From positions 310,337 through 374,336 of the forward strand of contig CAZAZW010000001.1 of assembly GCA_964489875.1 (NCBI GenBank): a DNA stretch of 64,000 nucleotides, in the 5' to 3' direction. Origin of the DNA: an uncultured Gammaproteobacteria bacterium (GTDB lineage Bacteria > Patescibacteriota > Microgenomatia > Daviesbacterales > UBA10151). The notes under the pieces were generated by a model. That model searched no databases. It worked only from the letters and a program-made list of their open reading frames with translations, and was not told the origin of the DNA. Made by a program: the position numbers and the translations under genes. Below, one piece after another: positions 6,146 through 62,249 of the stretch (positions within the stretch are counted from its first letter, which is position 1; the number at the start of each line of letters is the position of its first letter).

Positions 6146-6841
6146 ATGGAAAGATACTTAGGCGCTCTTTTAATTATCATCCTTGCCATCTTTGCTAAAA
6201 GCTTGTGGCAATCGCCGGCTGTTTTAGGCACTTCTACTCCATCGCCAACTGAAACTTTACCGGTTAACCAATCCGTTACTACTCAGTCCTCTTTTACAGA
6301 AAAACTCCAGGAAGAAACAGAAATCCTACCAAAAGCAACAGTTTATCAGGATGACCCGGAAACAGAAGCCGGTGAGGAAAAAGTTTTAGAAGAAGGGGAA
6401 GATGGCAAAAAAATTAAGATATTTAAAATCACCTATTCTAAAGACGGGGAAGAATACGACAGAGCCTTGGTTTCTGTGGAAACAACTCCGGCAAAAGATA
6501 AAAAAATCCTGCGGGGGACAAAAATTGTCTGGAAAACACTAGCGACTGCGGACGGAGAAATTAGATATTGGAAAAAAAGGCGGGTTTATGCCACTCACTA
6601 TGACTCCCGTTGCCCGGGTTGTGATGAATGGACAGCCATTGGTATGAGAGCCGGCAAAGGGGTAATTGCCGTGGATCCCAAAGTAATCAAGCTTAGGTCA
6701 AAAGTTTATGTCCCGGGATATGGCCTGGCAGTGGCAGGAGACACCGGCGGAGCCATCAAAGGAAATATTATTGACCTAGGTTTTGACGATGCCAGGACTG
6801 CCGGCTGGTCAGCAAGATTTGTAGATATCTACCTACTATAA
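6146..6841 (+). CDS. Secreted G5-domain + 3D-domain protein (cell-wall-associated, RpfB/YabE-like architecture)
   Basis: Signal anchor. G5-like EEKVLEEGEDGKKIKIFKITYSKDGEEYDR...ILRGTK. 3D-domain end VAGDTGGAIKGNIIDLGFDDARTAGWSARFVDIYLL. Confidence 0.75.
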   Translation: MERYLGALLIIILAIFAKSLWQSPAVLGTSTPSPTETLPVNQSVTTQSSFTEKLQEETEILPKATVYQDDPETEAGEEKVLEEGEDGKKIKIFKITYSKDGEEYDRALVSVETTPAKDKKILRGTKIVWKTLATADGEIRYWKKRRVYATHYDSRCPGCDEWTAIGMRAGKGVIAVDPKVIKLRSKVYVPGYGLAVAGDTGGAIKGNIIDLGFDDARTAGWSARFVDIYLL

Positions 6842-7952: not shown

Positions 7953-8021
7953 GGAGTTCGCTTTGAGGATGCGCGCACTGCCGGCTGGAGCGCAAGGTTT
8001 GTGTATATTTACCTGCTCTAA
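7953..8021 (+). pseudogene. Orphan relic of a 3D-domain gene 3' end
   Basis: Translates GVRFEDARTAGWSARFVYIYLL*, versus LGFDDARTAGWSARFVDIYLL* at 6775-6841. Many synonymous differences; no upstream ORF. Confidence 0.65.
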
Positions 8022-11205: not shown

Positions 11206-11709
11206 ATGGACACAACTTTAATCATTTCCGCCGGAATCTTATTAGGATGCGTCATCGGCCTTTCTTGGTTTGCCGGCTCTGATGCCCCTTATGTCCCAAC
11301 TAAGATGGAGAGAATCAGGAAAATTCTAAAACTGGCTGGTGTTAAAAAGGGCAAAAAATTTTATGAGTTGGGATCAGGAGACGGCCGGGTGGTTTTTGCA
11401 GCAGCCAAACTGGGAGCAAATTCAGTTGGAATAGAACAATCATGGCTTCGTGTGCTCTACTCGCGTTACAAATCGGCTTCCCACTCGTCAAGTGGGAACA
11501 CAAAGTTTTATCATGGCAATATTTTTTCAAGAATTTACGAAGATGCAAATGTAGTCTACATTTATCTTCTGCACAAAGGGGTCAAGAAATTAGAAGAGAA
11601 GCTCCGAAAAGAATTAAAAAAAGGATCAATTGTTATTACTCAAACTTACCACTTTCCGAACTGGAAGCCATCCAAGAAAAACGGGGATTTTTGGATTTAT
11701 ACTAAATAA
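11206..11709 (+). CDS. Class I SAM-dependent methyltransferase with N-terminal TM helix
   Basis: YELGSGDGRVVFAAAKLGANSVGIE (motif I). Starts 1 nt after the femAB-family gene. Confidence 0.6.
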   Translation: MDTTLIISAGILLGCVIGLSWFAGSDAPYVPTKMERIRKILKLAGVKKGKKFYELGSGDGRVVFAAAKLGANSVGIEQSWLRVLYSRYKSASHSSSGNTKFYHGNIFSRIYEDANVVYIYLLHKGVKKLEEKLRKELKKGSIVITQTYHFPNWKPSKKNGDFWIYTK

Positions 11710-12820
11710 CAATCAGTTTCTTTGGTGAAACTGTCAGCTGTCTAAAACCACTTTTTTCTAACACGAACAAGTCTTCAATCCTTCCCCCGCCCGCTTCGAC
11801 TCGCGTCGAGTGAGGCGAGCCAAAATCAGGTACATATATTCCCGGTTCTATGGAAAAAACCATTCCCTCTTTTAAAATCTCTTTACTTTTGGGTGACAAA
11901 CTGGGGTGTTCATGAACTTCCAAACCAATTCCATGACCTAAGGAATGGGGAATTGTCGGAAATCCTTTGGAAGTTATGTAATCCCGGGCTATTTTATCCA
12001 CTTCTGCAGTTTTAATTACTTTACCAGCTCTAATAGTAGAATTGATAAAATTCACTGCTTTTTGTTGGGCTGTCAAAACTGTCTGGTAGATTTCTTTTTG
12101 TTTACCAGCTGGCTCCCCGAAAAATACAGTCCTAGTCATATCAGAACAGTAATTTTCCAGCTTTACCCCGAAGTCCAGTAGAACAAATTCTCCATTTCCG
12201 GTTAATTTAGTTTCACCTGTCTGATGGTGTGGAATGGAAGAATTTTTACCAAAAGCTACAATTGGCGGAAAAGAAATTTCAGCCACTTTATCTTTAATGA
12301 AATTTTCCAGCTCATTTGCCACCTGCTTTTCAGTGACCCCAATTTTGATCTTTTTAAGAGTAAAATCGAAAGCCAAATCTCCAATCCTACAAGCTTTTTC
12401 TATTTTTTTTATTTCCTCTTCAGTCTTAACGCTTCTTAAATGGCCAACATCAAAATGTTTTATCTTTTTGAAGTGTTTGCTTAAAGATTTATGCTCCCCA
12501 ACGGTTAAATTATCTTCTTCAATCCCCAACCGTTTAATTTCTTTGTGGTGTTTTTTAAAAAGTTCCTTGGTGGGATTTATATGACTTCTTTCAAAAATGG
12601 TTAAGTGAGGAACCTCCCTTTTTATTGCCTCTGTATACCTGGCATCAGTAATAATGTAGGCAAAGTCTTTACCGATAAAAATATATGCCTCCCGTTCGTC
12701 CTTGGAAAAATTTGTAAAACCGGAAAGATAACTAATATTGGAAACCGAAGAAATCAAAACACCGTCCAGTTTTGCTTTCAGCAGTTTTTGTCTAATATCT
12801 TTTATCCTCTGCTCAAACAT
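11702..12820 (-). CDS. pepP: M24-family Xaa-Pro aminopeptidase
   Basis: DFG...YCSDMTRT, HGLGHGIGLEVHE, SIEPGIY, GGRIED. Confidence 0.85.
   Translation of the reverse strand: MFEQRIKDIRQKLLKAKLDGVLISSVSNISYLSGFTNFSKDEREAYIFIGKDFAYIITDARYTEAIKREVPHLTIFERSHINPTKELFKKHHKEIKRLGIEEDNLTVGEHKSLSKHFKKIKHFDVGHLRSVKTEEEIKKIEKACRIGDLAFDFTLKKIKIGVTEKQVANELENFIKDKVAEISFPPIVAFGKNSSIPHHQTGETKLTGNGEFVLLDFGVKLENYCSDMTRTVFFGEPAGKQKEIYQTVLTAQQKAVNFINSTIRAGKVIKTAEVDKIARDYITSKGFPTIPHSLGHGIGLEVHEHPSLSPKSKEILKEGMVFSIEPGIYVPDFGSPHSTRVEAGGGRIEDLFVLEKSGFRQLTVSPKKLIVI
11790..11821. repeat. GC-rich mini-element CCCGCTTCG-N13-GAGGCGAGCC inside pepP
   Basis: Read directly. Translated on the minus strand as SPHSTRVEAG, inserted just before the conserved GGRIED. 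Confidence 0.75.
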
Positions 12821-12852: not shown

Positions 12853-14016
12853 ATGAAACTACTCCATTTTTCCGACCTTCATATTGGCATGGAAAATTAT
12901 GCAAAATTAGATCCGGAAACCGGACTTTCCACTAGGCTGTTGGATTTTTTCAAAACTTTTGATTTTATTGTGGATACTGCCTTTAAAGAAAATGTCGATG
13001 TGGTTATCTTTGCCGGGGATGCCTATAAAACCCGTGACCCCAACCCTACCCAGCAACGGGGTTTTGGGCAGCGGATTGCTAAAATAGCCAAGAAGATACC
13101 GGTAATCTTAGTTGTGGGAAACCATGACACTCCTAATGCCGAAGGCAAGGCCAATACTTTGGATATTTACTCGGCTTTGGAGATAGATAATGTTTGGGTT
13201 TCCAGACACCCGGAAATTTTACAAATCTCTACCAAATCAGGAAATTTGCAAGTGGTCACCCTACCCTGGTTACATAAAAATGATTACAAAACCATTGCAG
13301 AAAAACTAAAATTACTCTACGGCAAAATTAAACCTCCGGCAGCTGCCGGACCTGCTATTTTAGCTTCCCATGCAGAAATAACAGGGGCACAGTTCGGTAG
13401 CGAAAAAGGCATGGCCATTACCAATGATGTCACCATTCCCCTACCGCTGATCCAGGATAAAAAAATATCTTATGTAGCTTTAGGCCACCTACACAAACAC
13501 CAAGTCTTATCAAAACCGGGCGACTCCACTTTAATTGTTTACTCCGGCTCGCCCCAGCGGGTGGATTTCGGGGAAGAAAAAGAGGAAAAGGGGATTTGCT
13601 TAGTGGAAATTTCACCTTCGAACAAGGCCACTTTTAATTTTATTCCCACCAATGCCCGGAAATTTTTAACTATCACCATCAACCTGGATGCCAAAGATAC
13701 CGATCCCACCAAAACCATTATCAAAACAATTGAAAGCAAAGATATCAAAGACAAGATCGTCAAGGTAATAATTAATATTCCGACCGAATGTGAGCAAGAG
13801 TTAAAAATGGACCAGATTAAAAAAGTTTTGAAAGATGCCAATTTTATTGCCGGCATTTCCCGGAATGTGGAAAGGGTTGAACGGGCCAGACTAGAAACTA
13901 GTGAAGTAGAAAGCCTTACTCCTATCCAGGCTTTACAAAAATATTTTGAAAGTAAAAAATACTCCCCCGAAAAACAGAAAAAATTAGAACAATATGCTGC
14001 CTTGTTACTGGAGTAA
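12853..14016 (+). CDS. sbcD: Exonuclease SbcD / Mre11-type nuclease
   Basis: MKLLHFSDLHIG, VIFAGDAY, VVGNHD, GHLH. Confidence 0.85.
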   Translation: MKLLHFSDLHIGMENYAKLDPETGLSTRLLDFFKTFDFIVDTAFKENVDVVIFAGDAYKTRDPNPTQQRGFGQRIAKIAKKIPVILVVGNHDTPNAEGKANTLDIYSALEIDNVWVSRHPEILQISTKSGNLQVVTLPWLHKNDYKTIAEKLKLLYGKIKPPAAAGPAILASHAEITGAQFGSEKGMAITNDVTIPLPLIQDKKISYVALGHLHKHQVLSKPGDSTLIVYSGSPQRVDFGEEKEEKGICLVEISPSNKATFNFIPTNARKFLTITINLDAKDTDPTKTIIKTIESKDIKDKIVKVIINIPTECEQELKMDQIKKVLKDANFIAGISRNVERVERARLETSEVESLTPIQALQKYFESKKYSPEKQKKLEQYAALLLE

Positions 14017-14018
14017 AC

Positions 14019-16190
14019 ATGATACCTGTTAACCTTAAATTATCTAACTTTACCAGCTACGGCGGAAATCCTCCGGAGTTGGATTTTACCAAATTTAAAC
14101 TGGCTGCCATCTCCGGATTAAACGGCGCCGGCAAATCATCACTCCTTGATTCCATTACCTGGTGTTTGTGGGGCACTTCCCGAGCCGGCGACTCCTCTGA
14201 TGATCTTGTCCACTTGGGAAGCCAGGAAATGAGCGTGGAATTCTCTTTTGAACTGGACGGCCACCTTTATACCGTTAAAAGGAAACGGATCAAAAAAGGT
14301 GGCGGCCAAACAGCCCTGGAACTTTGGTCCAATTCCCACAATTTAACAGAAGGCACTATTAAAGCAACCCAAACCAAAATCATTGATGCCCTACATTTAA
14401 GTTTTGAAACCTTTACCAACTCAGCTTACCTTCGCCAGGGCCATGCTGATGAGTTCACCACCAAGGGTCCGACTGACCGGAAAAGAATCCTGGCTGATAT
14501 TTTAGGGCTGGACCACTACGATAAACTGGAAGAGCGAGCCAAGGAAAAATCTAAAGAAGCCCAAACTAAATTGACGCTGCTGGATTACCAGCTGCTGGAA
14601 ATAGAGGCAGAGTTATCCCAAAAAGAAGACCGTTCAGCAAAGAAAAAGGCAACTGAGAATAAAATCACCGAAGTTGAAACACAAATTAAATCCTCGGAAG
14701 AAAAATTAAAAACCCTGCGGGAGCAGCGGGAAGCATTAAGTCTGGCTTCCGAACAAAGAAAAAAATTAGAGCAAAATTATTTGGAAAATAAAAAAGAATT
14801 AGAAGAAATCATCACTCAGGGGAAAAACCGCAAAAGTAAAATTGACTCCCTTAAACTGCAGCTGGAAAAATTGCAGGGAGTTACCGGAGAACTGGAGAAC
14901 TTAAAATCCCTCCAGCAGGAAAAAGAAAATTTGGAAAAAATTAAACAAGAAAAACTGGAAACAGAAAAACAATTATCCGATATTACCGGGGAGATTAATT
15001 TAAAAAAACTTAAAGTTCAAAATATCCAAAATGAAATCGATAAATTAACCTCTCAACTAACAGCATCATCAAAAACAGGAGCCAAGTGTCCTACTTGCGG
15101 ACAGGAAATCGGCAAAGCTGAAAAATCCCATGTGCACAGTCAACTGACAACTCAAATTACAGCTCTAAAAAAAGACCTTTTGAAAATTGACTTTTCCAGG
15201 GAAGAAAAAATATTAACTGAATTAGAGAAAAAATTAAAAACCTTTTTCTTTGATCCTCAAAAATATCAACAAATCCTACTACAACTTAAAAACTTAGAAG
15301 AAATCCAAAAACAAAAAGAGGAAATGCTGCAACTTAAGGCCACTTTGCAAACTGAGGAAAAGGTAGTTTTAGAAATGAGGACACTATTCCAAAACAAAAA
15401 ATCCCAGGTTGATAAGTTATCAGAAGAAATTAATAAACTGCCTGATTTATCGGAAAAAATTATTCACTCAAACAAAGAAATCGCCAGCACGGAAAACGAG
15501 TTAAGCAGTATCCGCGAAGAAGAAAAAGAAGCCCGCGGGATTTTGGGACAAATCAATGAATTAATCTCCCGGACTGCCCAGATGGAAAAACTGCAAAAAA
15601 ATAAAGGTGAAGAAAAATTTAATTTACAAAAAGAAAAAGAGATTTTTGATGAGCTAGCTTTGGCCTTTGGCAAAAAAGGCATCCAGGCCATGATTATTGA
15701 AAATGCCATCCCGGAAATAGAGGATGAAGCCAACAGATTATTGGACAAGTTAACTGAAGGCCGGATGAAAATCAGGTTAGAAACCCAAAAAGAAACTAAA
15801 ACCAAAGTGCTGCTGTCGGAGGGAGAAAAAGGCTATGCCATAGTGGAAACTTTGGAAATTATTATTTCGGATGAAATGGGCGAGCGGCCGTATGAGCTTT
15901 ATTCCGGCGGGGAAACTTTCCGGGTGAATTTTGCCATCAGACTAGCTATCTCAAAATTATTAACCCACCGGGCCGGGGCTAAGTTACAATTTCTAGTCAT
16001 CGATGAAGGTTTCGGCACCCAGGATGCGCCCGGCCGGGCCAGACTCGTGGAAGTTTTGGATACCATCAAAGATGATTTTGAAAAAATTATTGTCATTACT
16101 CATATTGAAGAGCTAAAGGAGGAATTCCCGGTCAGGATTGAAGTCTCCAAAAACTCAGGAGGTTCTACTTTTGAAGTGGTTGGGATTTAA
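14019..16190 (+). CDS. sbcC: SbcC / Rad50-type ATPase
   Basis: GLNGAGKSSLLDSI Walker A, long coiled coil with CPTCGQ zinc hook, YSGGETFR signature, LVIDEGFG Walker B. Confidence 0.85.
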   Translation: MIPVNLKLSNFTSYGGNPPELDFTKFKLAAISGLNGAGKSSLLDSITWCLWGTSRAGDSSDDLVHLGSQEMSVEFSFELDGHLYTVKRKRIKKGGGQTALELWSNSHNLTEGTIKATQTKIIDALHLSFETFTNSAYLRQGHADEFTTKGPTDRKRILADILGLDHYDKLEERAKEKSKEAQTKLTLLDYQLLEIEAELSQKEDRSAKKKATENKITEVETQIKSSEEKLKTLREQREALSLASEQRKKLEQNYLENKKELEEIITQGKNRKSKIDSLKLQLEKLQGVTGELENLKSLQQEKENLEKIKQEKLETEKQLSDITGEINLKKLKVQNIQNEIDKLTSQLTASSKTGAKCPTCGQEIGKAEKSHVHSQLTTQITALKKDLLKIDFSREEKILTELEKKLKTFFFDPQKYQQILLQLKNLEEIQKQKEEMLQLKATLQTEEKVVLEMRTLFQNKKSQVDKLSEEINKLPDLSEKIIHSNKEIASTENELSSIREEEKEARGILGQINELISRTAQMEKLQKNKGEEKFNLQKEKEIFDELALAFGKKGIQAMIIENAIPEIEDEANRLLDKLTEGRMKIRLETQKETKTKVLLSEGEKGYAIVETLEIIISDEMGERPYELYSGGETFRVNFAIRLAISKLLTHRAGAKLQFLVIDEGFGTQDAPGRARLVEVLDTIKDDFEKIIVITHIEELKEEFPVRIEVSKNSGGSTFEVVGI

Positions 16191-16204: not shown

Positions 16205-16576
16205 ATGGCCAAAATTATTTTCAAAATTCTTCCGGCTTTAGTTTTTTGGGCCAGTTTTGCCTATGTAGTTTTACAGGTGCCTTATCCGGACAGTTTAACC
16301 CAGGCTAATTTCACTCAAATTCTCCCATTTTTTGCTAGCCTTTTTCTGGCTTTAGTATTTACCCTGAACATTCTATTTAAAAATATCCTTTTCTCATCTT
16401 CCATCAGCTTAGGTCTAATTTTCCTATTAATTCTTAGCGCCTTGGACTCTTTAAACATCGTTACCGGTATCTTAATCGTTGTAGCTACTTATTTACTAGC
16501 CAGTTATTTTAGAAAAGCAAAAAGAAAAGGTTTGACTAAACAACCAAAAATCCCTAAACTAACGAAGCACTTATGA
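16205..16576 (+). CDS. Small integral membrane protein
   Basis: Four hydrophobic segments and a basic tail. Overlaps the metG start by 4 nt. Confidence 0.4.
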   Translation: MAKIIFKILPALVFWASFAYVVLQVPYPDSLTQANFTQILPFFASLFLALVFTLNILFKNILFSSSISLGLIFLLILSALDSLNIVTGILIVVATYLLASYFRKAKRKGLTKQPKIPKLTKHL

Positions 16577-18039
16577 ACAAATACTACATTACAACAGCTA
16601 TACCATATGTTAATGCTGCACCGCATATAGGCTTCGCACTTGAACTCGTACAAGCCGATACAATTGCACGCTACCATCGTGACATCTTAAAAGAGGATGT
16701 CTTCTTCTCGTCTGGTTCAGACGAGAATAGTCTGAAAAATGTCCAGGCAGCAGAAAGTGAAAGTATTCCTACTAGAAAATTAGTTGATAAATATGCAAAA
16801 AGGTTTGCGGACCTAAAATCGGTATTAAATATTTCTTATGACGTCTTCAACAGAACTGCCACAGAAGAGCACTTTAAAGGTGCACAGAAATTATGGTTAG
16901 CTTGTAAAAAAGAGGACATTTATAAACAAACTTATACTGGCCTTTACTGTGTTGGTTGTGAAGAATTCTACATTGAAGACGAACTAATAGATGGTCACTG
17001 TCCCGAGCACCCAAACATCATACCGGAGAAAGTAAGTGAGGAGAATTATTTTTTCAAACTAACTAACTATCAAAAAGATTTAGAGAAATTCATAGAGGAA
17101 GATAAAGTCAAAATTGTTCCCCAGACTCGGAAAAATGAAATCTTTTCATTTATAAAACAAGGTCTCAAAGATTTTAGTATTTCCAGATCAGTTGCCCGGG
17201 CTAAAGATTGGGGGGTCCCAGTTCCCAACGACCCCTCCCAAATCCAATATGTTTGGTTCGATGCTTTAGTAACTTACCTTACGGCATTAGGTTATGGAAC
17301 AAATGGGGAACTTTTCCATAAGTATTGGACGGAAGATTCAGAAAAAGTCCACATTATTGGAAAAGGGATTATCAGATTTCATGCAGTATATTGGATAGCA
17401 ATGTTATTGTCAGCAAATTTGCCTTTACCGAATTTAGAATTTGTTCACGGTTATATAACGGTAAACGGCCAAAAGATTAGCAAGTCTCTTGGTAATACAG
17501 TTGATCCATTTGAGTTGGTTCAAAAATACGGCACAGACCCTGTCCGCTATTATCTTCTAAAAGAAATCCCTGCTTATGGTGATGGCGATTTCTCTGAAGA
17601 AAAATTTAAAGAACTTTACAATGCTGACCTAGCAAATGGTTTGGGTAATCTAGTGGCCAGAGTAGCCAAACTTTGCGAAAAAATTAACCTTAACGTTTCA
17701 TTTACATCAGGGAATTTTTATACAATCGTGGAAAAGTCACTCGCTGATTTTCGCTTTGATATAGCTCTACATTATATATGGACACAAATTGCTCAAGTCG
17801 ATTCTATTATTAATCAAGAAAAACCATGGACATTAAAGGAAGACGATCTCCGTGTAGTTTTAGAGGCGGACTTGGTAAAGAAAATCCAACAAATTGCCTT
17901 TAATCTGCAGCCATTTTTACCTGAAACAGCCGAAAAAATCTTAAAACAATTTTCCGGACAAATTAAATCCGCCCCACCGCTTTTTCCCCGCCTGCCATCG
18001 CCTAGCGGCGAAGCAATTGGCGGGCAGGCCAGGCTATGA
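16573..18039 (+). CDS. metG: Methionine--tRNA ligase (short form)
   Basis: YITTAIPYVNAAPHIGFA (HIGH), CxxC knuckle CVGCEEF...CPEH, KISKSLGN (KMSKS). Confidence 0.9.
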   Translation: MNKYYITTAIPYVNAAPHIGFALELVQADTIARYHRDILKEDVFFSSGSDENSLKNVQAAESESIPTRKLVDKYAKRFADLKSVLNISYDVFNRTATEEHFKGAQKLWLACKKEDIYKQTYTGLYCVGCEEFYIEDELIDGHCPEHPNIIPEKVSEENYFFKLTNYQKDLEKFIEEDKVKIVPQTRKNEIFSFIKQGLKDFSISRSVARAKDWGVPVPNDPSQIQYVWFDALVTYLTALGYGTNGELFHKYWTEDSEKVHIIGKGIIRFHAVYWIAMLLSANLPLPNLEFVHGYITVNGQKISKSLGNTVDPFELVQKYGTDPVRYYLLKEIPAYGDGDFSEEKFKELYNADLANGLGNLVARVAKLCEKINLNVSFTSGNFYTIVEKSLADFRFDIALHYIWTQIAQVDSIINQEKPWTLKEDDLRVVLEADLVKKIQQIAFNLQPFLPETAEKILKQFSGQIKSAPPLFPRLPSPSGEAIGGQARL

Positions 18040-18926
18040 AATTAGTTGATACTCATACCCATCTTTATTGGGATTCATATACGGCAGATTTTGATGAAAT
18101 AATCCAAAGGGCTGTTGATACCGACATCTCCACCATTATTAACATCGGCGTGGATATTGAAACAAGCCAGAAAGCATTAGATCAAGCCAAAAACACCACA
18201 TGGCCTACAGGTTTATTAGTTTACTCCACCATTGGCATACATCCCCATGAATCATCTAAATATGATTCTAATGAATTTCTGCAACAAGCTATGGAAAAAC
18301 TAGAACAAATCTATCTTTCCGATAAGCGAAGCTTGAAAGTCAACCTTTCAAGCAAACTTTCAAGGTTTCCTTATAAAACAAGGGTGGTCGGGATTGGTGA
18401 ATGCGGTCTGGATTTCTTTTCCACCTCCGAGGTGGGCTTTGACTCCTCGGAGGTATTTAGTCAGAAAAAACTCTTTAAAGCCCACATTGATTTGGCCAAA
18501 AAACTAAACCTTCCTTTAATCGTCCATTGCCGGGATGACAGGTCAAAAGATCCAAACAATTCTGAAGCCTGGGGTGAAGTAATAAAAATGGTCGGCAACC
18601 AACCTGCCATCTTACATTGTTATAGTGGACTTTCCCAAACTACCAACTACCTACTACGAACTGCAAACTTATTTGTTTCTTTTGCAGCCAATCTCACTTA
18701 CCCCAAAAATGAATATTTAAGAGAAGCTGTTAAGACCCTACCTCTTAACAGAATTCTTTTAGAAACAGACTCCCCTTTTTTGGCTCCCCAAAGTAAAAGA
18801 GGCCAAAGGAATGAACCATCTGCAGTCAAAGAAATCGCCGAGTTAATTGCAAACTTAAAAGGAGTATCTCTGGAAGAAGTCGCCGACCAAACCACAGCAA
18901 ACGCTAATAAAATATTTGCTTTCTGA
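18036..18926 (+). CDS. tatD: TatD-family metal-dependent hydrolase
   Basis: VDTHTHL, IGECGLDF, IVHCRD, LLETDSPFL. Confidence 0.85.
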   Translation: MKLVDTHTHLYWDSYTADFDEIIQRAVDTDISTIINIGVDIETSQKALDQAKNTTWPTGLLVYSTIGIHPHESSKYDSNEFLQQAMEKLEQIYLSDKRSLKVNLSSKLSRFPYKTRVVGIGECGLDFFSTSEVGFDSSEVFSQKKLFKAHIDLAKKLNLPLIVHCRDDRSKDPNNSEAWGEVIKMVGNQPAILHCYSGLSQTTNYLLRTANLFVSFAANLTYPKNEYLREAVKTLPLNRILLETDSPFLAPQSKRGQRNEPSAVKEIAELIANLKGVSLEEVADQTTANANKIFAF

Positions 18927-24506: not shown

Positions 24507-24535
24507 TTGACATTAATCCTAAAATTTGCTATCAT
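24507..24535 (+). promoter_or_regulatory. Sigma-70-type promoter TTGACA-17-TATCAT
   Basis: ttgaca at 24507-24512 and tatcat at 24530-24535. The ORF-track start codon is actually the -35 hexamer. Confidence 0.55.
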
Positions 24536-24572
24536 ACGCACTCACCCTGCACCGAACGGTACAGGGTTTGTT

Positions 24573-25232
24573 TTGAAAAGTCAAAACAAAAACCTTCTGT
24601 CTAAGATAATTTCTGAAAGGGACGCCCTAAACAGCAAATTATCTAAAATCAAGCCAAGGTTCTTAAATAAGTTTACAAAGCTTGCCATAATATTATTTTT
24701 TTCTCTCACTTTACTCGGATACTATCCAGCTTTTTCTATCCCGCCTATAAAACACTCTGTGGTGAAAGCTGCCTCAGACGAACAAAAAGGAGAAATTATT
24801 GCAAATAACTTTTCTAAACCTCTTATTCTACCGCATCCCGGATACCTGTCAACCAGATTTTCTACTTGGCATCCTGGTTTGGATATTGCCACTGGTTTGG
24901 GAATGCCTATTCATCCTATTATTGACGGGGAAATCCTCCAAGTCGGCAGAGATTTTTGGGGTCTAGGGAACTTTGTGGAAGTTGGTCACGAAAACGGTTT
25001 TAAATCAAAATATGCCCACATGGGCAAAATTTTCGTTAAAGTGGGAGATAAAGTCACGGAGGAGAGCACCTTAGGTGAAGTTGGCTTAACCGGCCGCACT
25101 TCCGGCTCGCACACCCACCTGGAAGTAACCTTAAATGGAAATTATGTAAATCCGCAACCTTTGCTTCCGGAAATTCCTGACATGCCCGCTTCGACTCTGC
25201 GAGGCGAGCCAATAATCGCAGTCAAGAAATGA
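24573..25232 (+). CDS. M23-family peptidoglycan endopeptidase
   Basis: HPGLDIA (HxxxD), GRTSGSHTHLEV (HxH), TM anchor. No in-frame ATG, so the start is placed at TTG 24573 downstream of the promoter (uncertain). Confidence 0.75.
   Translation: MKSQNKNLLSKIISERDALNSKLSKIKPRFLNKFTKLAIILFFSLTLLGYYPAFSIPPIKHSVVKAASDEQKGEIIANNFSKPLILPHPGYLSTRFSTWHPGLDIATGLGMPIHPIIDGEILQVGRDFWGLGNFVEVGHENGFKSKYAHMGKIFVKVGDKVTEESTLGEVGLTGRTSGSHTHLEVTLNGNYVNPQPLLPEIPDMPASTLRGEPIIAVKK
25185..25210. repeat. GC-rich mini-element CCCGCTTCG-N7-GAGGCGAGCC at the 3' end of the M23 gene
   Basis: Read directly. Translated as PASTLRGEP. Confidence 0.75.
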
Positions 25233-29815: not shown

Positions 29816-30775
29816 CTATTGTAGCACAACAAGTAAATTTCGTTGATATTCAGATAAGATTTTACTGCGGCAATCTTCGGGATGAAAATACAACGCCCCG
29901 TCTTCTATTCTCTCCAAACCTTTTGGTTTTTGCATAATTTTCAGCTGCAACTTTTTAGCCAAAATCTCTAACAACAAAGGGAGGCTGCCTCCGAACGCAG
30001 CGAGCCTTAGACGATCCGCCGACAGGCGGAGAGCGTATCCGAGGCGATTAGCCACAGGACGCTTGCGTTGGTGAGCAAGTGAGCGGGGCTGCCGACCGAA
30101 ATCACCAGAACCCAGACGAGCTTCCCCGACACCCACCCAGTTTGGTAAAAATTTAAAAGCCCAGGAGTTTCTCTCCAGGTATTTTGCATAAATCCCATCC
30201 CTTTGCCACAGCACCTTCATTTGTAGCACCTCGTGTGCAACAAAGATATCTTTGTTCTGTTGCTCCAATCGGTCTTCTTCGAGTAAAATATTAAGACACA
30301 GCTTCCCGGCAATTTTTTTACCCTTTTCCCCAACTTTTCTTCTTTGTCCTATTAAAGACAGTAACACCAAAGCCAACAGCCGGGAAATCCATAAGCGATT
30401 TTTAGCAGTAATAATAAAAAGATCAATATCATCTTTTTTAGAAGCATTACATAAAGCCAGTCCCCCTGATATCCCCACCAATTTTATCCAGGGAATTATT
30501 TTTAAAATCTGACAGAGTATTTTAGCTTTTCGGAAATACTTAGCGGACTGACCTTCCCGGCGTTTTCTTTTTATTATTAAACCATTCTTCCCCGGCAAAA
30601 AGTAATATCCTCCTTGTATTTTTAGCTTTGAATTTTCAACTAATCGACCTATGGCCGACTCCACCTGCCTTAGGTTAGCTTTCCTGCCTATCAACCACTT
30701 ATGAATATCATTCATCTTTAAGGGATAATCAAAAATATCAGCATAAATTAAAGTTTTTAATATAGCTTTTTCCAT
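29816..30775 (-). CDS. Hypothetical protein with Pol-beta-type nucleotidyltransferase-like motif
   Basis: VGISGGLALCNASKKDDIDLFIIT (GS...DxD pattern). Carries the 110-nt GC-rich insert. Confidence 0.4.
   Translation of the reverse strand: MEKAILKTLIYADIFDYPLKMNDIHKWLIGRKANLRQVESAIGRLVENSKLKIQGGYYFLPGKNGLIIKRKRREGQSAKYFRKAKILCQILKIIPWIKLVGISGGLALCNASKKDDIDLFIITAKNRLWISRLLALVLLSLIGQRRKVGEKGKKIAGKLCLNILLEEDRLEQQNKDIFVAHEVLQMKVLWQRDGIYAKYLERNSWAFKFLPNWVGVGEARLGSGDFGRQPRSLAHQRKRPVANRLGYALRLSADRLRLAAFGGSLPLLLEILAKKLQLKIMQKPKGLERIEDGALYFHPEDCRSKILSEYQRNLLVVLQ
29993..30102. repeat. GC-rich ~110-nt element, copy A, in-frame inside a minus-strand ORF
   Basis: Shares gaacgcagcga.c..tagacga, gcgtatccgag, a tccgcc...ggcgga hairpin, and a 48-nt 3' core (30055-30102) that is 45/48 identical to 43137-43184. 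Confidence 0.8.
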
Positions 30776-37328: not shown

Positions 37329-38261
37329 ATGATTACAGTTACCGGATCTCTAGCTTTTGATCATATTATGGATTTTCCTGGCAAATTTTCCGATCATATT
37401 ATGCCGGATAAAATCCACCAGATAAACTTATCTTTTTTAGTTAATACTTTAAGTAAGCAAAAAGGCGGTACTGCCGGAAACATTGCCTATAATTTAGCTC
37501 TTCTAAAAACTCCTGTTTCCGTTGTAGGGATGGCTGGCCATGATTTTCCGGAATACGCCAAATTCCTGGAAAATACCGGTGTTGATATTTCAAAGATCCA
37601 AACAGCCGAAAATAATCTAACCTCTTCTGCTTTTATTATGACCGACAAAGCAGATAATCAGATTACAGCCTTTTACCCTGGCGCCATGAAAGATGCAACC
37701 CAACTTTCTCTGGATGGACTCACCACGGATTTTGTTGTTGTCTCTGCCAATAACCCGGAAGCCATGGTTAAATTTGCCAAACAGTGCCAAGAACTTAATA
37801 TCAAATACATGCTGGATCCCGGCATGCAGCTTCCCCGGCTGACAGATGAGGAGTTACGAAGCGGCATTAAAGGCGCAGAAATCCTAATTGGCAATGATTA
37901 TGAAATTTCTCTTCTGAAAGAAAAACTGATGCTGGACGACAAACAACTGCTGGAACAAGTAAAAATTCTAATTACCACCTTGGGTGAAAAAGGCTCAACT
38001 ATCCAAACCAAAAACCAGACGCTGCAAATTCCGGCTGCTAAACTAAACCAGGTACTTGACCCCACCGGTGCCGGTGATGCTTTTCGGGCCGGATTTTTGG
38101 CAGGATTTACCAAAGGGTTAAACCTTCAAGCTTGCGGACAAATAGGATCTGTAGCTGCTTGTTACGCGATAGAAAAATATGGTACAACTAATCACAAGTT
38201 TACGATTGAGGAATTTAAGGAAAGATACCACCAGAATTTTGGAAGGGAATTGAACTTATGA
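37329..38261 (+). CDS. PfkB-family carbohydrate/nucleoside kinase (adenosine-kinase-like)
   Basis: [42 protein letters not shown]. Start set at the internal ATG. Confidence 0.75.
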
Positions 38262-39544
38262 TCAAATATGACATCAAAGACAAAAACCTAGCAGCAAAAG
38301 GCAAACTTAAGATTGAATGGGCCGGATCCCAGATGAAAGTGCTGGAACTTATCAAGAAGCGCTTCTCAGAAGAGAAACCCCTCAAAGGTATCACTTTAGG
38401 AGCCTGCCTTCATGTTACAAGCGAAACTGCCAATTTAATGATTACACTTAAGGAAGGTGGAGCTGAATTAGCTTTGTGTGCCTCAAATCCCCTTTCCACC
38501 CAGGACGAAGTAGCCGCCTCTTTGGTAGAAGACTACCACATTCCTACTTTTGCCATAAAAGGTGAGGATAAAGATACCTATTATAAACACTTAAATACTG
38601 TCTTAGACTTTAATCCCCAAATTACCATGGATGACGGAGCAGATCTGGTCACGCTGCTTCACACCGAGCGAAAATCCCAACTCAAAGATGTCATTGGCTC
38701 ATCAGAAGAAACCACTACCGGAGTGATTAGACTTAGAGCAATGCTAAAAGATGGGACACTCAAGATTCCTGTCATGGCAGTCAATGATAGTAGCACCAAG
38801 CACATGTTTGATAACCGCTATGGCACAGGACAGTCCACCATTGATGGGATCATCAGGGCTACTAATGTACTGTTGGCTGGCAAAAAGTTTGTGGTAGTGG
38901 GTTACGGCTGGTGCGGCAGAGGCCTGGCCCAACGGGCCAGAGGTATGGGATCTTTAGTAATAATTACTGAAGTTGACCCCTTAAAAGCTTTGGAAGCAAC
39001 CATGGACGGATATGATGTAATGCCCATAAACGAGGCTATCGAAGTAGCTGACATCATCTGCACTGCCACCGGCAATAAAACCGTTCTCTCGGTGGAACAC
39101 TTCAAAAAAATGAAAGACGGCGCCATTGTGGCCAATACCGGACATTTCAACGTGGAATTTGATTATGAGGGCCTGCTTAAAATAGCCAAAAAGAAACGCC
39201 TGCTAAGGGATAATTTGGAGGAAATTACCCTGGAAGACGGCTCGCCTCGCTTCGCGGGCGAAGCGGGTAAAAAAGTCTTCGTACTGGGGGAGGGCCGGTT
39301 AATTAATTTGAGCGCAGCCGAAGGCCATCCACCGGATGTAATGGATATGTCCTTTGCCAACCAAGCCCTAGCAGCAGAATTCTTGGTAAAAAATAAAGGT
39401 AAACTTAAAACAGATGTTTATAGAGTACCAAAAGAATTAGATGACATGATCGCCGAGCTAAAACTTAAATCTTTGGGTATTTCCATTGATACTCTGACGG
39501 AAGACCAGAAAAAATACCTCGCCTCCTGGCATGAGGGGACTTGA
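38258..39544 (+). CDS. ahcY: Adenosylhomocysteinase
   Basis: [57 protein letters not shown]. Confidence 0.9.
39239..39267. repeat. GC-rich mini-element (reverse orientation) GGCTCGCCTC-N10-CGAAGCGGG inside ahcY
   Basis: Contains a perfect 8-bp hairpin cgcttcgc-gg-gcgaagcg. Translated as [10 protein letters not shown]. Confidence 0.75.
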
Positions 39545-39587: not shown

Positions 39588-40874
39588 ATGTTAGCTGTTG
39601 CTGAAAGGCCAATTTTAAATCAGGTAGCCTCAGGTGAAAAGATTACCATTCTACGGGGGCTTGTAGCCACTAGTTTCAGATTACTAAAAGATCATCAATT
39701 TCCTAATGGCACCATTCCTGCATCCCTGGGGCGCAATGACGATCATCACTTTAAAGATACTGTCTGGATAAAAGATGCTGCGCGTGCCGTACAATTTGCG
39801 CTTGATCCGGATTTTAGACAAGCGTTTCCCCGTCTAATAGAAGGTGCTGAAAAACTTTATCTGTCTACAATTGGAGGGTTACTCGAAATACAAACTAACC
39901 CCGAGCAAATGGAGAGACTCAAAACAAGACCAAGCTGTCCAGACGGAAATGGATATTGTAGTATTGATGATCAACAAGCTCCTGCAATTAAATTTTATGG
40001 TCCTGATGGCAGTATTGTCCGTGATTGGGGACACAACCAACCGGATAACTGGGGTATCTTGCTTTTGGAAGCCGGAAAAGGCATTGAGGCGGGCCTACCG
40101 ATGTTGGAAGCTGAAAAATTCAACCCAGGAGAGGTTTTAGCTAATATCACTTCCTATGTCGCGAATCTGAAAGTTGAACGACTCAATTGCAGATCAATTT
40201 GGGAACAAGATATTATCTGGTCATCATACTCGACCAGGCGCATTGTCTTGGCCGGCTTAGAGCAGATGTTAAAGGTATGGGATCAGATAGAACAAGATGG
40301 TCATACAAAAGGTTACGAAGTGACTGTTCAAAAACAAGGTGTTTCTACAGCAATTCAGAATTTAAGGCCTTCAGTAAAAGAGCATCGTGGTGATTATACT
40401 AGTTCAACAGGTCACCATTTTGCAGGAGATTTAGCTTCATTGATAGTCTTGAATGATATAGAACTACCCCCAGAAGAACAATTAGAAATCATCAGAAAAA
40501 TTGCCGAAGGAGAATTGGAAAATAGTCTTGGTTTCTACCGATGGTTGGGAGATACCTGGAAAAAAGGCGGAACTGAAGCAAAATGGACCATGGGTAAACC
40601 AATATTAGCAAGATACTATTTTAGAAAAGCCATGGAATTAGCTTCTGTTCACCCTACAGCAAGTCTTAGAAGTCTTGATCACGGCTTAGATCGAATGCAG
40701 GATATTCTCGATATTAACGATAAGTATGGTTACATTCCAGAGCTTTTTGAACACGGCTCTGGAATAGGTATTTACTACCCTAATAGAAATGACCTGGGCT
40801 GGACCAGATCTTACTTAGTAGAAGCGGCAAGCTCTGGCATTAATGCTTTACAAATAATTACAAAAGCTGCATGA
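39588..40874 (+). CDS. Glycoside hydrolase family 15-like (alpha/alpha)6-barrel protein (tentative)
   Basis: TVWIKDAARA, WGHNQPDNWG, RSIWEQD: resemble GH15/glucoamylase-type motifs by eye. Confidence 0.45.
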   Translation: MLAVAERPILNQVASGEKITILRGLVATSFRLLKDHQFPNGTIPASLGRNDDHHFKDTVWIKDAARAVQFALDPDFRQAFPRLIEGAEKLYLSTIGGLLEIQTNPEQMERLKTRPSCPDGNGYCSIDDQQAPAIKFYGPDGSIVRDWGHNQPDNWGILLLEAGKGIEAGLPMLEAEKFNPGEVLANITSYVANLKVERLNCRSIWEQDIIWSSYSTRRIVLAGLEQMLKVWDQIEQDGHTKGYEVTVQKQGVSTAIQNLRPSVKEHRGDYTSSTGHHFAGDLASLIVLNDIELPPEEQLEIIRKIAEGELENSLGFYRWLGDTWKKGGTEAKWTMGKPILARYYFRKAMELASVHPTASLRSLDHGLDRMQDILDINDKYGYIPELFEHGSGIGIYYPNRNDLGWTRSYLVEAASSGINALQIITKAA

Positions 40875-42359: not shown

Positions 42360-43490
42360 ATGGTAATCTTGGGAATTGAAACCAGTTGTGATGAAACGGC
42401 AGCTGCAGTAGTGCAAAAGTCCGGAGAAAGGGTAAAAATTTTATCCAATGTTGTGGCATCCTCAGCTGCGCTGCAAGCTAAATACGGCGGTGTAATCCCC
42501 GAACAAGCTGCCAGAGAACAAATAAAATCTATTATTCCTGTTATCCAAGAGGCACTTTCTGAAGCATTTCCCCAACTACCAACTACTAACTACCAACTAC
42601 ATATTCCTATTGATGCAATAGTAATTACCTACGGTCCCGGACTTATCGGCTCACTTTTAGTAGGCGTCGAAACAGCCAAAACCCTGGCCATGGTCTGGAA
42701 CAAACCACTCATTCCGGTAAACCATTTACTGGGCCATTTCTATGCGAATTGGATTAATGATCAGCCTACCCTCCCCTGCCTTGGCTTGCTTATCTCCGGC
42801 GGGCATACTGATTTAGTTTTATTCAAAAGCCATGATAAATACGACTACCTAGGTGGAACCCGGGATGATGCAGCCGGGGAATGTTTTGACAAATGCGCCA
42901 GGCTTTTAAATTTACCTTATCCTGGTGGGCCGGAAATTTCTAAATTAGCCACACGTGGAGATGCTTCAAGGTTCAATCTCCCCAGACCTATGATTGATTC
43001 CAAAGACTTTGATTTTTCATTTTCCGGCTTAAAAACTGCGGTTTCTAACCTTTTAAAAAATGAGGGGGTGCTGTCCCTGAACGCAGCGAACTCTAGACGA
43101 GCGAAGCGAGCGTATCCGAGTCCGCCAGGGCGGACGCAGGACGCTTGCGTTAGTGAGCAAGTGAGCGGGATTGCCGACCGAAATATTCTCCAGGATTTAT
43201 CCGCTTCCATAGAACAAGCTATTGTTGATGTTTTAATTACCAAAACCCTCAAGGCCGCCCAGAAATATAAAGTCAAGCAAATAATGGTGGCTGGTGGAGT
43301 TGCTGCCAACCAAAAACTAAAAAGTGACTTAAGATTAAAAATTAATGATTTAGGATTAAAAATTAAATTGCACATCCCTACGCCTGAACTCTGTACTGAC
43401 AATGCTGCCATGATTGCTACGGCTGCCTTTTTTAACTACCACCCCACTGATCCCTTAACCCTCCAAGCCAACCCCAATTTATCCCTGTGA
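42360..43490 (+). CDS. tsaD: tRNA N6-adenosine threonylcarbamoyltransferase
   Basis: ILGIETSCDETAAAVV, NHLLGH, GGHT, FSFSGLKTAV, VAGGVAAN, CTDNAAMIA. Confidence 0.9.
   Translation: MVILGIETSCDETAAAVVQKSGERVKILSNVVASSAALQAKYGGVIPEQAAREQIKSIIPVIQEALSEAFPQLPTTNYQLHIPIDAIVITYGPGLIGSLLVGVETAKTLAMVWNKPLIPVNHLLGHFYANWINDQPTLPCLGLLISGGHTDLVLFKSHDKYDYLGGTRDDAAGECFDKCARLLNLPYPGGPEISKLATRGDASRFNLPRPMIDSKDFDFSFSGLKTAVSNLLKNEGVLSLNAANSRRAKRAYPSPPGRTQDACVSEQVSGIADRNILQDLSASIEQAIVDVLITKTLKAAQKYKVKQIMVAGGVAANQKLKSDLRLKINDLGLKIKLHIPTPELCTDNAAMIATAAFFNYHPTDPLTLQANPNLSL
42572..42599. repeat. Heptamer tandem array CCAACTA x4 inside tsaD
   Basis: ccaacta ccaacta ctaacta ccaacta, translated as QLPTTNYQLH. Confidence 0.85.
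43079..43184. repeat. GC-rich ~106-nt element, copy B, in-frame inside tsaD
   Basis: Same modules as 29993-30102 in the same DNA orientation, but here the host gene is on the plus strand. Translated as NAANSRRAKRAYPSPPGRTQDACVSEQVSGIADRN. Confidence 0.8.
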
Positions 43491-60657: not shown

Positions 60658-60834
60658 TTGTTTATATTAGCAGAAAATTTCAGCCTTGTATAGCTATCTT
60701 CTAAATCTGCAATTGATCTACTTATTTATAGTTTCTCTATATTGTCAAGGTTGACAATCTGAACTAAATTGTGGATAACTGATTTTGACTTTGTGGATAA
60801 GTCAAAATCATAATTCTATTACTTGCCCCAATCT
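60658..60834. other. oriC part 1 / dnaA promoter region with DnaA boxes
   Basis: AT-rich stretch at 60660-60740. Palindrome attgtcaa-gg-ttgacaat (60741-60758). Perfect TGTGGATAA boxes at 60770-60778 and 60792-60800, and a 1-mismatch box TATGGATAA at 60834-60842. Confidence 0.7.
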
Positions 60835-61839
60835 ATGGATAACCTACGCCTTTGGCATAAATTTTTATCAACCATTAAACCCCAGGTTGGAAATGACAAC
60901 TTTAAGGCATACTTTTTAAAAACCCTGTTAAAATCCTCCAATAACGATCTGATCGTCTTAAGCGCTCCCTCAGCATTCATAAAAGAGAATCTGGATCAAA
61001 AATTCAAGACCATTATCAAGCAAGCCTTTGCTAGTCTTTTAGGCAAAAAGGTGGAGGTTGAATTTATTGTCAAAGAGACCGAAAGGATGACAGAGGAAGT
61101 GGAGGAAGATTTTTTCCAGCCTATCCAGACCACACCCAGCGCTTTAAACCCCAAATATACCCTGGAAAACTTTGTGGTTGGACCCTCTAATAATGTAGCT
61201 TATGCTGCGGCCCAGGCAGTAGTGCAGAATCCGGGAACAAGTTATAATCCGCTATTTTTATACGGGGGGACCGGGGTAGGAAAAACTCACTTAATGCTGG
61301 GTATCGGTAACGCCCTGTTAGCAAAAAAGGGGCATCTTAAAGTTATCTACTGCTCTTCGGAGAAATTCATGAATGATTATGTCACCGCCATCCAGGAACA
61401 TAAAATGGGGGATCTGAGAAAAAGATACCGTATGGCTGATATACTACTGATTGACGATATCCAATTTTTCTCCGGTAGGGAAGGAACGCAGGAAGAGTTT
61501 TTCCACACTTTTAATGAGTTGCAATCCAAAAACTCGCAAATGATCCTAACTTCAGACCGACCTCCGCAAGAAATTGCCAAACTGGAGGATCGACTTAAAA
61601 GTCGTTTTACCGGAGGACTGATGATAGACATCCAATCACCTGACTTTGACACTCGGGTGGCAATTTTACGGGCTAAGTGTGCTGAACAAGGAAATATGCT
61701 ACCTGAAGACGCTCTTAAATTAATAGCTTCTTCCCTAGATTCCAATATCAGAGAACTGGAGGGTAAGCTAATCCAAATCTTACAATCCTTAAAAGCCCAA
61801 GCAAGTTTTATCTGTAATCTGCAGCTTCTTCGACGTTAG
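60835..61839 (+). CDS. dnaA: Chromosomal replication initiator DnaA, domains I-III (reading frame ends prematurely)
   Basis: GGTGVGKTHLM (Walker A), LLIDDIQF (Walker B), LTSDRPP, RLKSRF, IRELEG (sensor II). Stop at 61837-61839 before domain IV. Confidence 0.85.
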   Translation: MDNLRLWHKFLSTIKPQVGNDNFKAYFLKTLLKSSNNDLIVLSAPSAFIKENLDQKFKTIIKQAFASLLGKKVEVEFIVKETERMTEEVEEDFFQPIQTTPSALNPKYTLENFVVGPSNNVAYAAAQAVVQNPGTSYNPLFLYGGTGVGKTHLMLGIGNALLAKKGHLKVIYCSSEKFMNDYVTAIQEHKMGDLRKRYRMADILLIDDIQFFSGREGTQEEFFHTFNELQSKNSQMILTSDRPPQEIAKLEDRLKSRFTGGLMIDIQSPDFDTRVAILRAKCAEQGNMLPEDALKLIASSLDSNIRELEGKLIQILQSLKAQASFICNLQLLRR

Positions 61840-62074
61840 CTTAAAGGATTTAACCGGACCAAAAAGGCAAAAAGAGCTGGTGCTGCCGCGCCACATTGCG
61901 ATGTATATACTCTCAGAAGAACTAAGGCTAACGGTAGAAAAAATCGGACAAGTACTGGGGGGCAGAGATCACACCACAGTCATGCACGGTAGGGATAAAA
62001 TGAAACAACTGATTAATAAGGACCGGGAAGTACAACGGATGTTTATCGAAGTAAAACAGAAAATAATGAGTTAG
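61772..62074 (+). pseudogene. dnaA: DnaA domain IV in the +1 frame (frame-shifted continuation of dnaA)
   Basis: The frame is open from 61772: ...KQVLSVICSFFDVSLKDLTGPKRQKELVLPRHIAMYILSEELRLTVEKIGQVLGGRDHTTVMHGRDKM. The ORF track shows only the GTG-initiated 64 aa from 61880. Confidence 0.8.
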
Positions 62075-62249
62075 ACTTTATCCACCAGATAAAGTTATTT
62101 ATCCACAATTTATCCACCATTTTTAAACAAGCATTTAACACGAAAATTTACCAAAAAGTGAACCGGAAATCTTTAGTTACCAACAAATCCACAGACTATA
62201 TTATTACTACTATTGTTTAATAAATTGTGTAGTATAATCGAACATACTT
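62075..62249. other. oriC part 2: DnaA-box cluster between dnaA and the next gene
   Basis: TTATCCACC at 62078-62086, perfect TTATCCACA at 62099-62107, TTATCCACC at 62110-62118, AAATCCACA at 62185-62193, TGTGGACAA at 62249-62257. AT-rich stretch at 62119-62160. Confidence 0.7.

Follow-up and report, generated by a model that had tools for sequence, protein, structure and literature searches.

A family of GC-rich, quasi-palindromic insertion elements of 18-33 bp, acting at the level of DNA and persisting in genes by being translatable, is the favored explanation (probability roughly 0.6) for three short in-frame inserts in a 64,000-nucleotide stretch of an uncultured bacterial genome (assembly GCA_964489875.1, contig CAZAZW010000001.1, positions 310,337 to 374,336 of the forward strand), hereafter called the window. 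The inserts lie in three essential-looking genes, namely pepP (Xaa-Pro peptidase, M24), ahcY (adenosylhomocysteinase), and a gene for an M23 family peptidase; the genome is small and AT-rich, and the window is Daviesbacteria-like, its AhcY being 91% identical (BLASTP) to a Candidatus Daviesbacteria protein (P0003). In the best reading, the element is a non-autonomous coding micro-palindrome, the bacterial counterpart of yeast mitochondrial GC clusters and of Rickettsia palindromic elements (RPE). It inserts next to a pre-existing GG and has GG on both sides afterwards; the statistics of its copies show that within genes only stop-free units with a length divisible by three (3n) survive; variants replace one another at a single site; and units grow in tandem and by nesting.

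The unit is an imperfect inverted repeat of the half-site CYCGCYTCG with the arms CCCGCTTCG and CGAGGCGAG, in which CGCTTCG pairs with CGAGGCG over 7 bp, including one G.T pair, around a variable centre of 1, 4, 7, 10, 13, or 16 nt (N1 to N16). The whole N13 unit forms an 11/15 imperfect dyad, and in the conserved arms all six frames are free of stop codons. Loop-less dyads are common among the centres (AAAGCTTT and GGAGCTTC are examples) and would suit recognition of duplex DNA or of cruciforms. Identity with a known RNA family was rejected, as Rfam gave no gathering-score match in the window and only chance-level matches around two of the copies.

The pattern CCCGCTTCG-N13/N7/N10-GAGGCGAGCC has three exact matches in the window, one for each centre length, and none in 100 dinucleotide-preserving shuffles, which bears out the original prediction, made from the letters alone, of a mini-element family lying in frame in these three genes. 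The N13 copy (11790-11821, + strand; a 30-nt unit plus the shared CC) is located inside pepP (11702-12820, - strand), the N7 copy (25185-25210, + strand; a 24-nt unit plus the shared CC) inside the M23 peptidase gene (24507-25232, + strand), and the N10 copy (39239-39267, - strand; a 27-nt unit plus the shared GG) inside ahcY (38258-39544, + strand). No extra degenerate copy was found in the window with 1-2 mismatches allowed per arm. The copies are, as had been claimed, distinctly GC-richer than their surroundings, with a GC content of 0.72-0.79 vs. 0.37-0.44 in the 200-nt flanks (the window overall has 40.7% GC).

Each copy is read through by its host gene. The pepP insert is translated as GSPHSTRVEA, followed by GGGRIED, and thus reads GSPHSTRVEAG with the next residue; it had been placed immediately before the motif GGRIED, and while the insertion there was confirmed, its site is more exactly the turn between Phe and Gly-Gly (F-GG, the hyphen marking the insertion point) that precedes GG(V/G)RIED. 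The M23 copy splits a Pro codon of the C-terminal tail (PDM-P[ASTLRGEP]-IIAVKK), giving the element peptide PASTLRGEP beyond the Pfam M23 domain, which ends at residue 216. The ahcY copy encodes GSPRFAGEA between LED and GKK and contains the perfect hairpin CGCTTCGC-GG-GCGAAGCG that had been reported for it. The same copy had been described as interrupting a conserved strand, a description that did not hold: the D/N-G position that it occupies varies in sequence and falls between two strands (321-325 and 338-342) predicted by an AlphaFold model of low confidence (mean predicted local distance difference test score, pLDDT, of 51).

All three window copies are clean insertions, and the inserted status proposed for them is supported both by homologous structures without the residues and by empty-site DNA for all three genes. 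Compared with solved structures (e.g., PDB 7o5l), AhcY shows a 9-residue gap exactly at GSPRFAGEA, and PepP shows a 10-residue gap before GG(V)RIED when compared with solved PepP/prolidase structures (PDB 3q6d, 5cdl). At the DNA level, the empty ahcY site reads GAG GAC GGT AAA AAA (locus L120) and the filled site of the window GAA GAC [GGC TCG CCT CGC TTC GCG GGC GAA GCG] GGT AAA AAA, with a unit of 27 nt in brackets; the empty pepP site reads GAT TTT GGC GGC GTC (L136) and the filled one GAT TTT [GGC TCG CCT CAC TCG ACG CGA GTC GAA GCG] GGC GGG, with a unit of 30 nt; the empty M23 site reads ATG CCG ATT (L143 and most other loci resolved there) and the filled one ATG CC[C GCT TCG ACT CTG CGA GGC GAG CC]A ATA, with a unit of 24 nt. 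The inserted unit therefore measures N+17 nt (30, 24, and 27 nt in pepP, M23, and ahcY); the pattern match is longer by 2 nt, since it includes the terminal CC/GG that element and target have in common. In all three genes, one GG (= CC) is present at the empty site and one on each side of the filled site; two bases fit both a 2-bp duplication of the target and an insertion directly beside GG. The unit length is confirmed by a tandem array on a Buchananbacteria contig (L071, 4867-4989), where four perfect head-to-tail N13 units with a 30-nt period and shared CC lie inside an open reading frame (ORF) of 997 codons and encode (PASTRVERGE)x4; two further, slightly diverged copies occur there at about 2383 and 3195.

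A genome scan with exact arms, covering one genome per species, returned at least 119 loci. Sources with a local GC of up to about 0.56 were taken as the AT-rich set, which comprises 63 listed copies including the three of the window. A pattern search had been proposed as a check in the original prediction, and the element does recur elsewhere: other AT-rich genomes, most of them Patescibacteria belonging to many classes, hold at least about 60 copies with exact arms. Matches in GC-rich genomes have spacers that are random in length and sequence and look like chance, whereas the centres in AT-rich sources form recurrent subfamilies: CCGAATC for N7, CCCGCGAAGC for N10, and CCGGAGCTTCAGC and ACTCGCGTCGAGC for N13. 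Among the matches listed, 57 of 61 copies have a purine immediately 5' of CCCGC, which sets the target at about GGY.

Carrier taxa are named here by their record titles, except for L053, which was checked by its homologues. The patescibacterial labels include Daviesbacteria, Saccharibacteria, Giovannoni-, Moran-, Kuenen-, Nealson-, Komeili-, and Buchananbacteria, among others, and one carrier is a single-cell genome (SAG AM-311-M21). Labels outside the Candidate Phyla Radiation (CPR) are Melioribacter/Melioribacteraceae, Lentimicrobiaceae, Bacteroidetes, uncultured Gammaproteobacteria, Thermodesulfobacteriota, and Pirellulales. The verified non-CPR case is an argH fragment on a Melioribacteraceae contig (L053) with the 9-residue insert GSPRFGVEA; its product is 71-81% identical to the eight best homologues, several of which are named Ignavibacteriales, Melioribacteraceae, or Bacteroidota, and the insert is missing from all 119 homologues resolved at the site. 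The element family is present in at least two phyla. A viral vector was considered and rejected: a scan of viral contigs gave only chance matches in GC-rich contigs and one family-like copy, which lies in a 61% GC viral contig (L130), and cultured phage and plasmid records held nothing meaningful for the element.

Of the 63 listed copies, 41 lie within ORFs of 150 codons or more, and all 41 are 3n units, compared with 14 of the 22 located elsewhere (Fisher p = 8e-5); a preference for multiples of three had been put forward for testing in the original prediction. For the 8 copies that are not 3n, neither side shows a long open frame, which makes them intergenic and not frameshifts or bypass sites, and no frameshifted or bypassed gene was found among them. 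The idea that copies occur preferentially in ORFs failed, since the ORF share of 65% is set against a coding density of about 90%; copies are tolerated in ORFs and not attracted to them. Coding copies are stop-free and give the host protein a short loop of 6-11 residues. Two frames are preferred, PAS..RGEP for the forward element and GSPR..(G/V)EAG for the reversed one, both of which restore the Pro (CCN) or Gly (GGN) codon that was hit; they account for 29 of the 41 listed coding copies (71%) vs. 33% expected from the codon phase of CC/GG (p = 1e-6), and that phase alone was rejected as the cause of the bias. The orientation relative to the gene is 21:20 among the same copies, which speaks for the DNA, rather than an RNA or a peptide, as the conserved entity.

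Insertion sites typically adjoin Gly or Pro. A D-G site is used in AhcY, CopA, and a YfcE-like phosphoesterase, F-GG in PepP, GP-DG in a sorbosone-dehydrogenase-like protein, and G-W in AspRS. The hosts are core genes: LeuRS, AspRS, Lon, PNPase, and EF-Ts (which holds two copies) are among those confirmed by Pfam, and CopA and FtsK were recognized by eye from their translations.

The three window sites differ in their occupants among relatives. In trees built by neighbor joining (NJ) on shallow alignments, the carriers of the AhcY insert are scattered: 111 of 120 Daviesbacteria-like orthologues have no insert, and the other nine carry one at the same codon boundary. The DNA alleles at this site comprise N10 (window and L121), N4 (L126), N1 (L125), a degenerate form (L124), and hairpins of the type CCTGCC...GGCAGG (L122, L123). 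Among 120 PepP orthologues, about 100 are empty; N4, N10, N13, or nested forms of 16-19 residues occupy the F-GG site in 18, and three have an LPAGRQG-type hairpin at a second site, one of which (P0190) is also occupied at F-GG; the carriers are again scattered in the NJ tree. A close relative (L137) has the rare GGGRIED flank in common with the window, and its pepP insert is N10 where the window has N13; this N10 insert is identical in 27/27 positions to the ahcY insert of the window. At the M23 site, the same Pro codon holds N7 in the window and N4 in L165. Because the pattern recurs in other genomes and most AhcY and PepP orthologues carry no insert, the original prediction of a dispersed, inserted family stands.

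Beyond this clade, none of 133 more distant PepP representatives resolved at the site is occupied at F-GG, and 2 of 133 have LPAGRQG-like inserts at the second site. The clade restriction of F-GG is significant (Fisher p = 2e-6, calculated on 17/120 vs. 0/133; the 17 became 18 on recount), and universal homing into this site was rejected on the empty distant representatives.

Where orthologous copies can be compared, they are 97% identical (1/33 and 1/30 nt differ), while their host genes are 77-79% identical; 1 of 20 codons within the element has changed synonymously, as against 267 of 651 outside it (p = 7e-4). Between the window and L072 (Daviesbacteria JACPDA010000004.1), identity is only about 83% in the codons on either side of the pepP copy and 97% in the element itself, so there is no recombination tract, and allele transfer by homologous recombination is unsupported as the cause of the conservation. 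Turnover and conservation together require at least one of three things: repeated recent acquisition at permissive sites, conversion limited to the element, or constraint at the sequence level. The PepP of L072 has, in addition, extra residues at two other positions, encoded by sequences of the type CCTTCGACTC..TTCGCTCAGGA, which may belong to another, AT-richer or decayed family of mini-inserts.

Composite and nested forms extend the family. The gene metG (16573-18039, + strand), a short-form methionyl-tRNA synthetase by the assignment of the original prediction, ends in a composite hairpin (17991-18028, + strand) in which CCTGCC...GGCAGG outer arms enclose a degenerate N4 core. The core (17998-18014) has the opposite orientation, and its sequence TCGCCTAGCGGCGAAGC differs from the N4 variant by 1 mismatch (0 such matches expected), so the kinship suggested for this hairpin was upheld. 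The composite encodes the final residues of MetG (..RLPSPSGEAIGGQARL, followed by the stop) and reaches -14.6 kcal/mol as DNA (z = -1.7). An outer hairpin, cccgcctg...ggcgaggcagg, encloses many of the listed copies and stands alone at the AhcY site of L122, and in L138 a 21-nt unit is nested in an N13 copy.

Several further repeats were observed alongside the element. A sister hairpin family, CC(T/C)GCCTGCC-GGC(G)AGGCA(A)GG, gives (L)PAGRQG or APPAGEA on translation and occurs at the AhcY site of L122 and L123 and at the second PepP site (after EPGIYL) in P0170, P0184, P0190, P0373, and P0380, where it reaches the distant PepP representatives. A longer GC-rich repeat family of about 110-125 nt is present in the window at 29975-30102 and 43065-43184, inside ORFs, namely an uncharacterised 319-aa ORF on the - strand and tsaD (42360-43490). 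It is made up of the blocks GAACGCAGCGA.C..TAGACGA, GAGCGTATCCGAG, and CAGGACGCTTGCGTT.GTGAGCAAGTGAGCGGG..TGCCGACCGAAAT with variable nested hairpins TCCGCC..GGCGGA, and it has short modules in common with the mini-element. A 35-nt repeat rich in AACTACCAACTAC is found with 86% identity in a tatD-like gene (18631-18665) and in tsaD (42567-42601), and strings of the type aactacaaacta flank a mini-element in L010.

In the mechanism proposed, a trans-acting activity that recognizes the dyad or the hairpin would copy the element from one site to another and, now and then, from one lineage to another. Copies would be kept alike through recent re-insertion or through element-limited conversion between copies, and loss would take place by precise deletion across the hairpin. 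Copying, homogenization, and loss would together yield patchy presence and absence at the same site and the exchange of length variants in pepP, ahcY, and M23, with the encoded peptide as a passenger rather than a function. A bolder version of this proposal is tentative, with the odds against it: that these are an active population of micro-palindromes, the first bacterial equivalents of GC clusters, spreading within and between phyla (Patescibacteria and neighbors or hosts such as Ignavibacteriota) via a hairpin- or dyad-dependent mechanism that targets GGY, exchanging variants at occupied sites and adding or removing loops in essential proteins. Copies in common might then be a sign that episymbiotic CPR cells and their hosts exchange DNA.

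A number of observations weigh against the insertion-element interpretation. The loci examined contained no transposase or other mobilizing enzyme, the 515 kb examined contained no longer element with the same arms, and the interval between inverted copies in L039 and L008 held ordinary genes and no ORF resembling a REP-associated tyrosine transposase (RAYT). Copy density is modest, at 3 per 64-kb window, and about 108 kb of related loci yielded no copy outside the three known sites; the exact arms demanded by the scan make its count of copies a lower bound. The element hairpins have no more than moderate stability as DNA, with -5 to -9 kcal/mol and z = -1 to -1.9. The occupation of F-GG in the Daviesbacteria-like clade only, with 0/133 in the distant representatives, argues against general site-specific homing, and as the target is merely GGY, the reuse of one site per gene needs selection of permissive sites, descent with precise loss, or conversion. 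The strong nucleotide conservation of orthologous copies could instead signal a function of the sequence.

That last point is the core of one unlikely alternative, in which the unit is a DNA motif useful to the host and under selection or molecular drive, such as a DNA-uptake sequence or the binding site of a dimeric protein, with coding copies where they can be accommodated. It would account for orthologous copies far more conserved than host synonymous sites, for perfect arms in the three window copies with no slightly degraded ones beside them, for the irrelevance of orientation (21:20), and for the loop-less dyad centres, which suit recognition of double-stranded DNA. Uptake sequences in Pasteurellaceae likewise sit in tolerated frames, and CPR bacteria rely on competence machinery. 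However, known uptake sequences occur roughly once per kb, far above the density of about 1 per 20-80 kb found here, and the copies arise by clean insertion of 18-33 nt, not by substitution. Most orthologues of each host gene are without the element, the same sequence is present in Patescibacteria and on an Ignavibacteriota contig, and perfect tandem arrays and nested forms resemble the behavior of an element. A similarly low probability is given to one ancient insertion, or local palindrome accident, per site that evolves in place by 3-nt steps and precise deletions with no present transposition. Palindromes flanked by short direct repeats are deletion hotspots, the N1, N4, and N10 centres at the ahcY site are interconvertible by simple internal insertions, and pepP F-GG is occupied only within one clade, all of which fit such a history; the distribution of centres speaks against it. 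The N10 centre CCCGCGAAGC recurs in the ahcY of the window, the pepP of L137, L043, and L107, the N7 centre CCGAATC occurs in several loci with different phylum labels (labels as in the records), and the unrelated N13 and N10 centres of pepP sit in sister alleles with the rare GGGRIED flank. Moreover, decay at the synonymous rate would be expected of an old neutral insert and is not observed, and the argH insert is missing from every close relative found.

Less probable still is that the units derive from a larger mobile element (insertion sequence (IS), intron, or homing element), as footprints of its excision or relics of internal deletion, with only in-frame scars surviving in genes. Constant arms with centres that vary in length and sequence would agree with it, as would the short modules shared with the 110-125-nt repeat, yet 515 kb of AT-rich loci yielded no arm pair more than 40 nt apart other than short copies with slight divergence, and the centres are recurrent subfamilies across genomes instead of unique junctions. 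Perfect tandem units exist, and cells with a large insertion in ahcY, pepP, or an aminoacyl-tRNA synthetase gene would probably have died before its excision. A role at the RNA or peptide level, as an mRNA hairpin that pauses ribosomes, an excised or bypassed segment, or a functional peptide module, is considered very improbable. Copies in genes are always in frame and stop-free, and translation can bypass yeast relatives of GC clusters (PMC8811140), but both orientations are equally common and give different RNAs and peptides, all coding copies are 3n, for which bypass or excision has no need, Rfam returned no match, and hairpin stability is modest. An assembly or sequencing artefact can practically be dismissed even though most sources are metagenome-assembled genomes, for the contigs come from different projects and assemblers by record name, SAG AM-311-M21 is among the carriers, the centres vary, gene copies are always in frame, and orthologous copies differ by point substitutions.

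Read as an insertion element, the family works like GC clusters and RPE and is a member of neither. Yeast mitochondrial GC clusters are short GC-rich palindromes in AT-rich DNA with AG/TAG terminal repeats and no known transposase, and they show in-frame insertion polymorphism in var1, fast-changing loops, and merging or nesting into new clusters (PMC8811140). The present family resembles them as a short GC-rich palindrome of AT-rich genomes with terminal GG/CC repeats, in-frame gene polymorphism, and nesting. It differs in being bacterial and chromosomal, in its spread over many Patescibacteria classes and at least one other phylum, in its strict 3n length within genes, in its shorter size (18-33 nt), and in the lack of sequence similarity to the M, G, and V classes; GC clusters are mostly intergenic, whereas most sampled copies here are inside genes. 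RPE are in-frame palindromic repeats in unrelated housekeeping genes that encode a fold-compatible peptide and have no known autonomous partner; they are about 100-150 bp long (roughly 30-50 residues) and confined to Rickettsia (PMC10969869). In-frame insertion into unrelated protein genes with preservation of the ORF is shared with RPE, unlike the size of 18-33 bp (6-11 residues), the GC richness in AT-rich genomes, and the distribution across phyla in Patescibacteria and other hosts. Bacterial MITEs (transposable elements of the miniature inverted-repeat type) such as Correia, RUP, and Nezha have terminal inverted repeats and a short target duplication, lie occasionally in frame in genes, and are generally 50-500 bp long and derived from identifiable IS families (PMC10969869). 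The pairing of CGCTTCG with CGAGGCG corresponds to the terminal inverted repeats of a MITE, but 18-33 bp is far below that range, and no parent IS with the same ends was present in the 515 kb.

Repetitive extragenic palindromes and their doublets (REP/REPIN) are extragenic imperfect palindromes of 20-40 nt with a GTAG-type tetranucleotide, usually arranged as inverted doublets and accompanied by a RAYT (TnpA-like) gene. The present elements are likewise GC-rich imperfect palindromes of many copies at the DNA level, with a weak YYTR preference in the four bases 5' of the hairpin, but 41 of the 63 listed copies lie in ORFs of at least 150 codons, there is no fixed tetranucleotide, and no RAYT-like gene was present in the loci inspected. 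DNA uptake sequences (DUS/USS) differ by the low density (3 per 64 kb) and by the origin through insertion rather than substitution. MJRE repeats of Methanocaldococcus jannaschii are short, mostly intergenic, lineage-specific palindromes that can sit in coding regions. In Magnusiomyces mitochondria, the ribosome skips the byp elements, whose length is free to depart from 3n; all 41 listed coding copies of the present family are 3n and stop-free. Byps are mentioned alongside GC clusters (PMC8811140). Full-text literature searches for the element sequence or the phenomenon in CPR bacteria found no prior description.

If the proposal is true, some of the smallest bacterial genomes tolerate selfish DNA that is hidden in essential genes by its translatability, and part of the many small lineage-specific insertions in CPR proteins would be accounted for. 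The insertion sites would form a natural catalogue of insertion-tolerant positions in AhcY, PepP, aminoacyl-tRNA synthetases, Lon, PNPase, and EF-Ts. What moves and homogenizes a 24-30 bp palindrome across phyla is a puzzle that is decades old for GC clusters and RPE, and the CPR setting, with thousands of genomes and time-series metagenomes, might be an easier one. In practice, the elements can confound orthologue alignments and gene-length statistics of CPR bacteria and are potential strain-level markers.

Other features of the window were recorded next to the host genes and further away. The genes sbcD and sbcC (12853-16190), for a nuclease that cleaves hairpins and palindromes, directly adjoin pepP; their presence beside it in a genome with palindromic inserts is noted as a coincidence and does not count as evidence. 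A GC island at 13546 (GGCTCGCCCC...AGCGGG), which encodes YSGSPQRVDFGE in sbcD, was treated as a chance resemblance and not as a copy, the YSGSPQRVDFGE stretch presumably being SbcD's own conserved sequence. The ORF of 428 aa directly 3' of ahcY (39588-40874) has no Pfam match at E <= 1e-5. A 60-nt direct repeat with 78% identity occurs at 6782-6841 and 7962-8021, both copies ending in TAA and the first forming the end of a G5/3D-domain ORF (6146-6841). The gene dnaA (60823-62074) is apparently split by a frameshift, in that the N-terminal and AAA+ part ends at 61839 and domain IV (..LPRHIAMYILSEEL..GGRDHTTV..) follows in a different frame (about 61842-62074); the break is free of GC-rich elements, and the split could be an assembly error or real. 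The region 60765-62130 around this gene is a probable replication origin, in which three perfect DnaA boxes (TTATCCACA) flank dnaA, with dnaN following at 62803, yidC located upstream, and a sign change of the GC skew near 62 kb.

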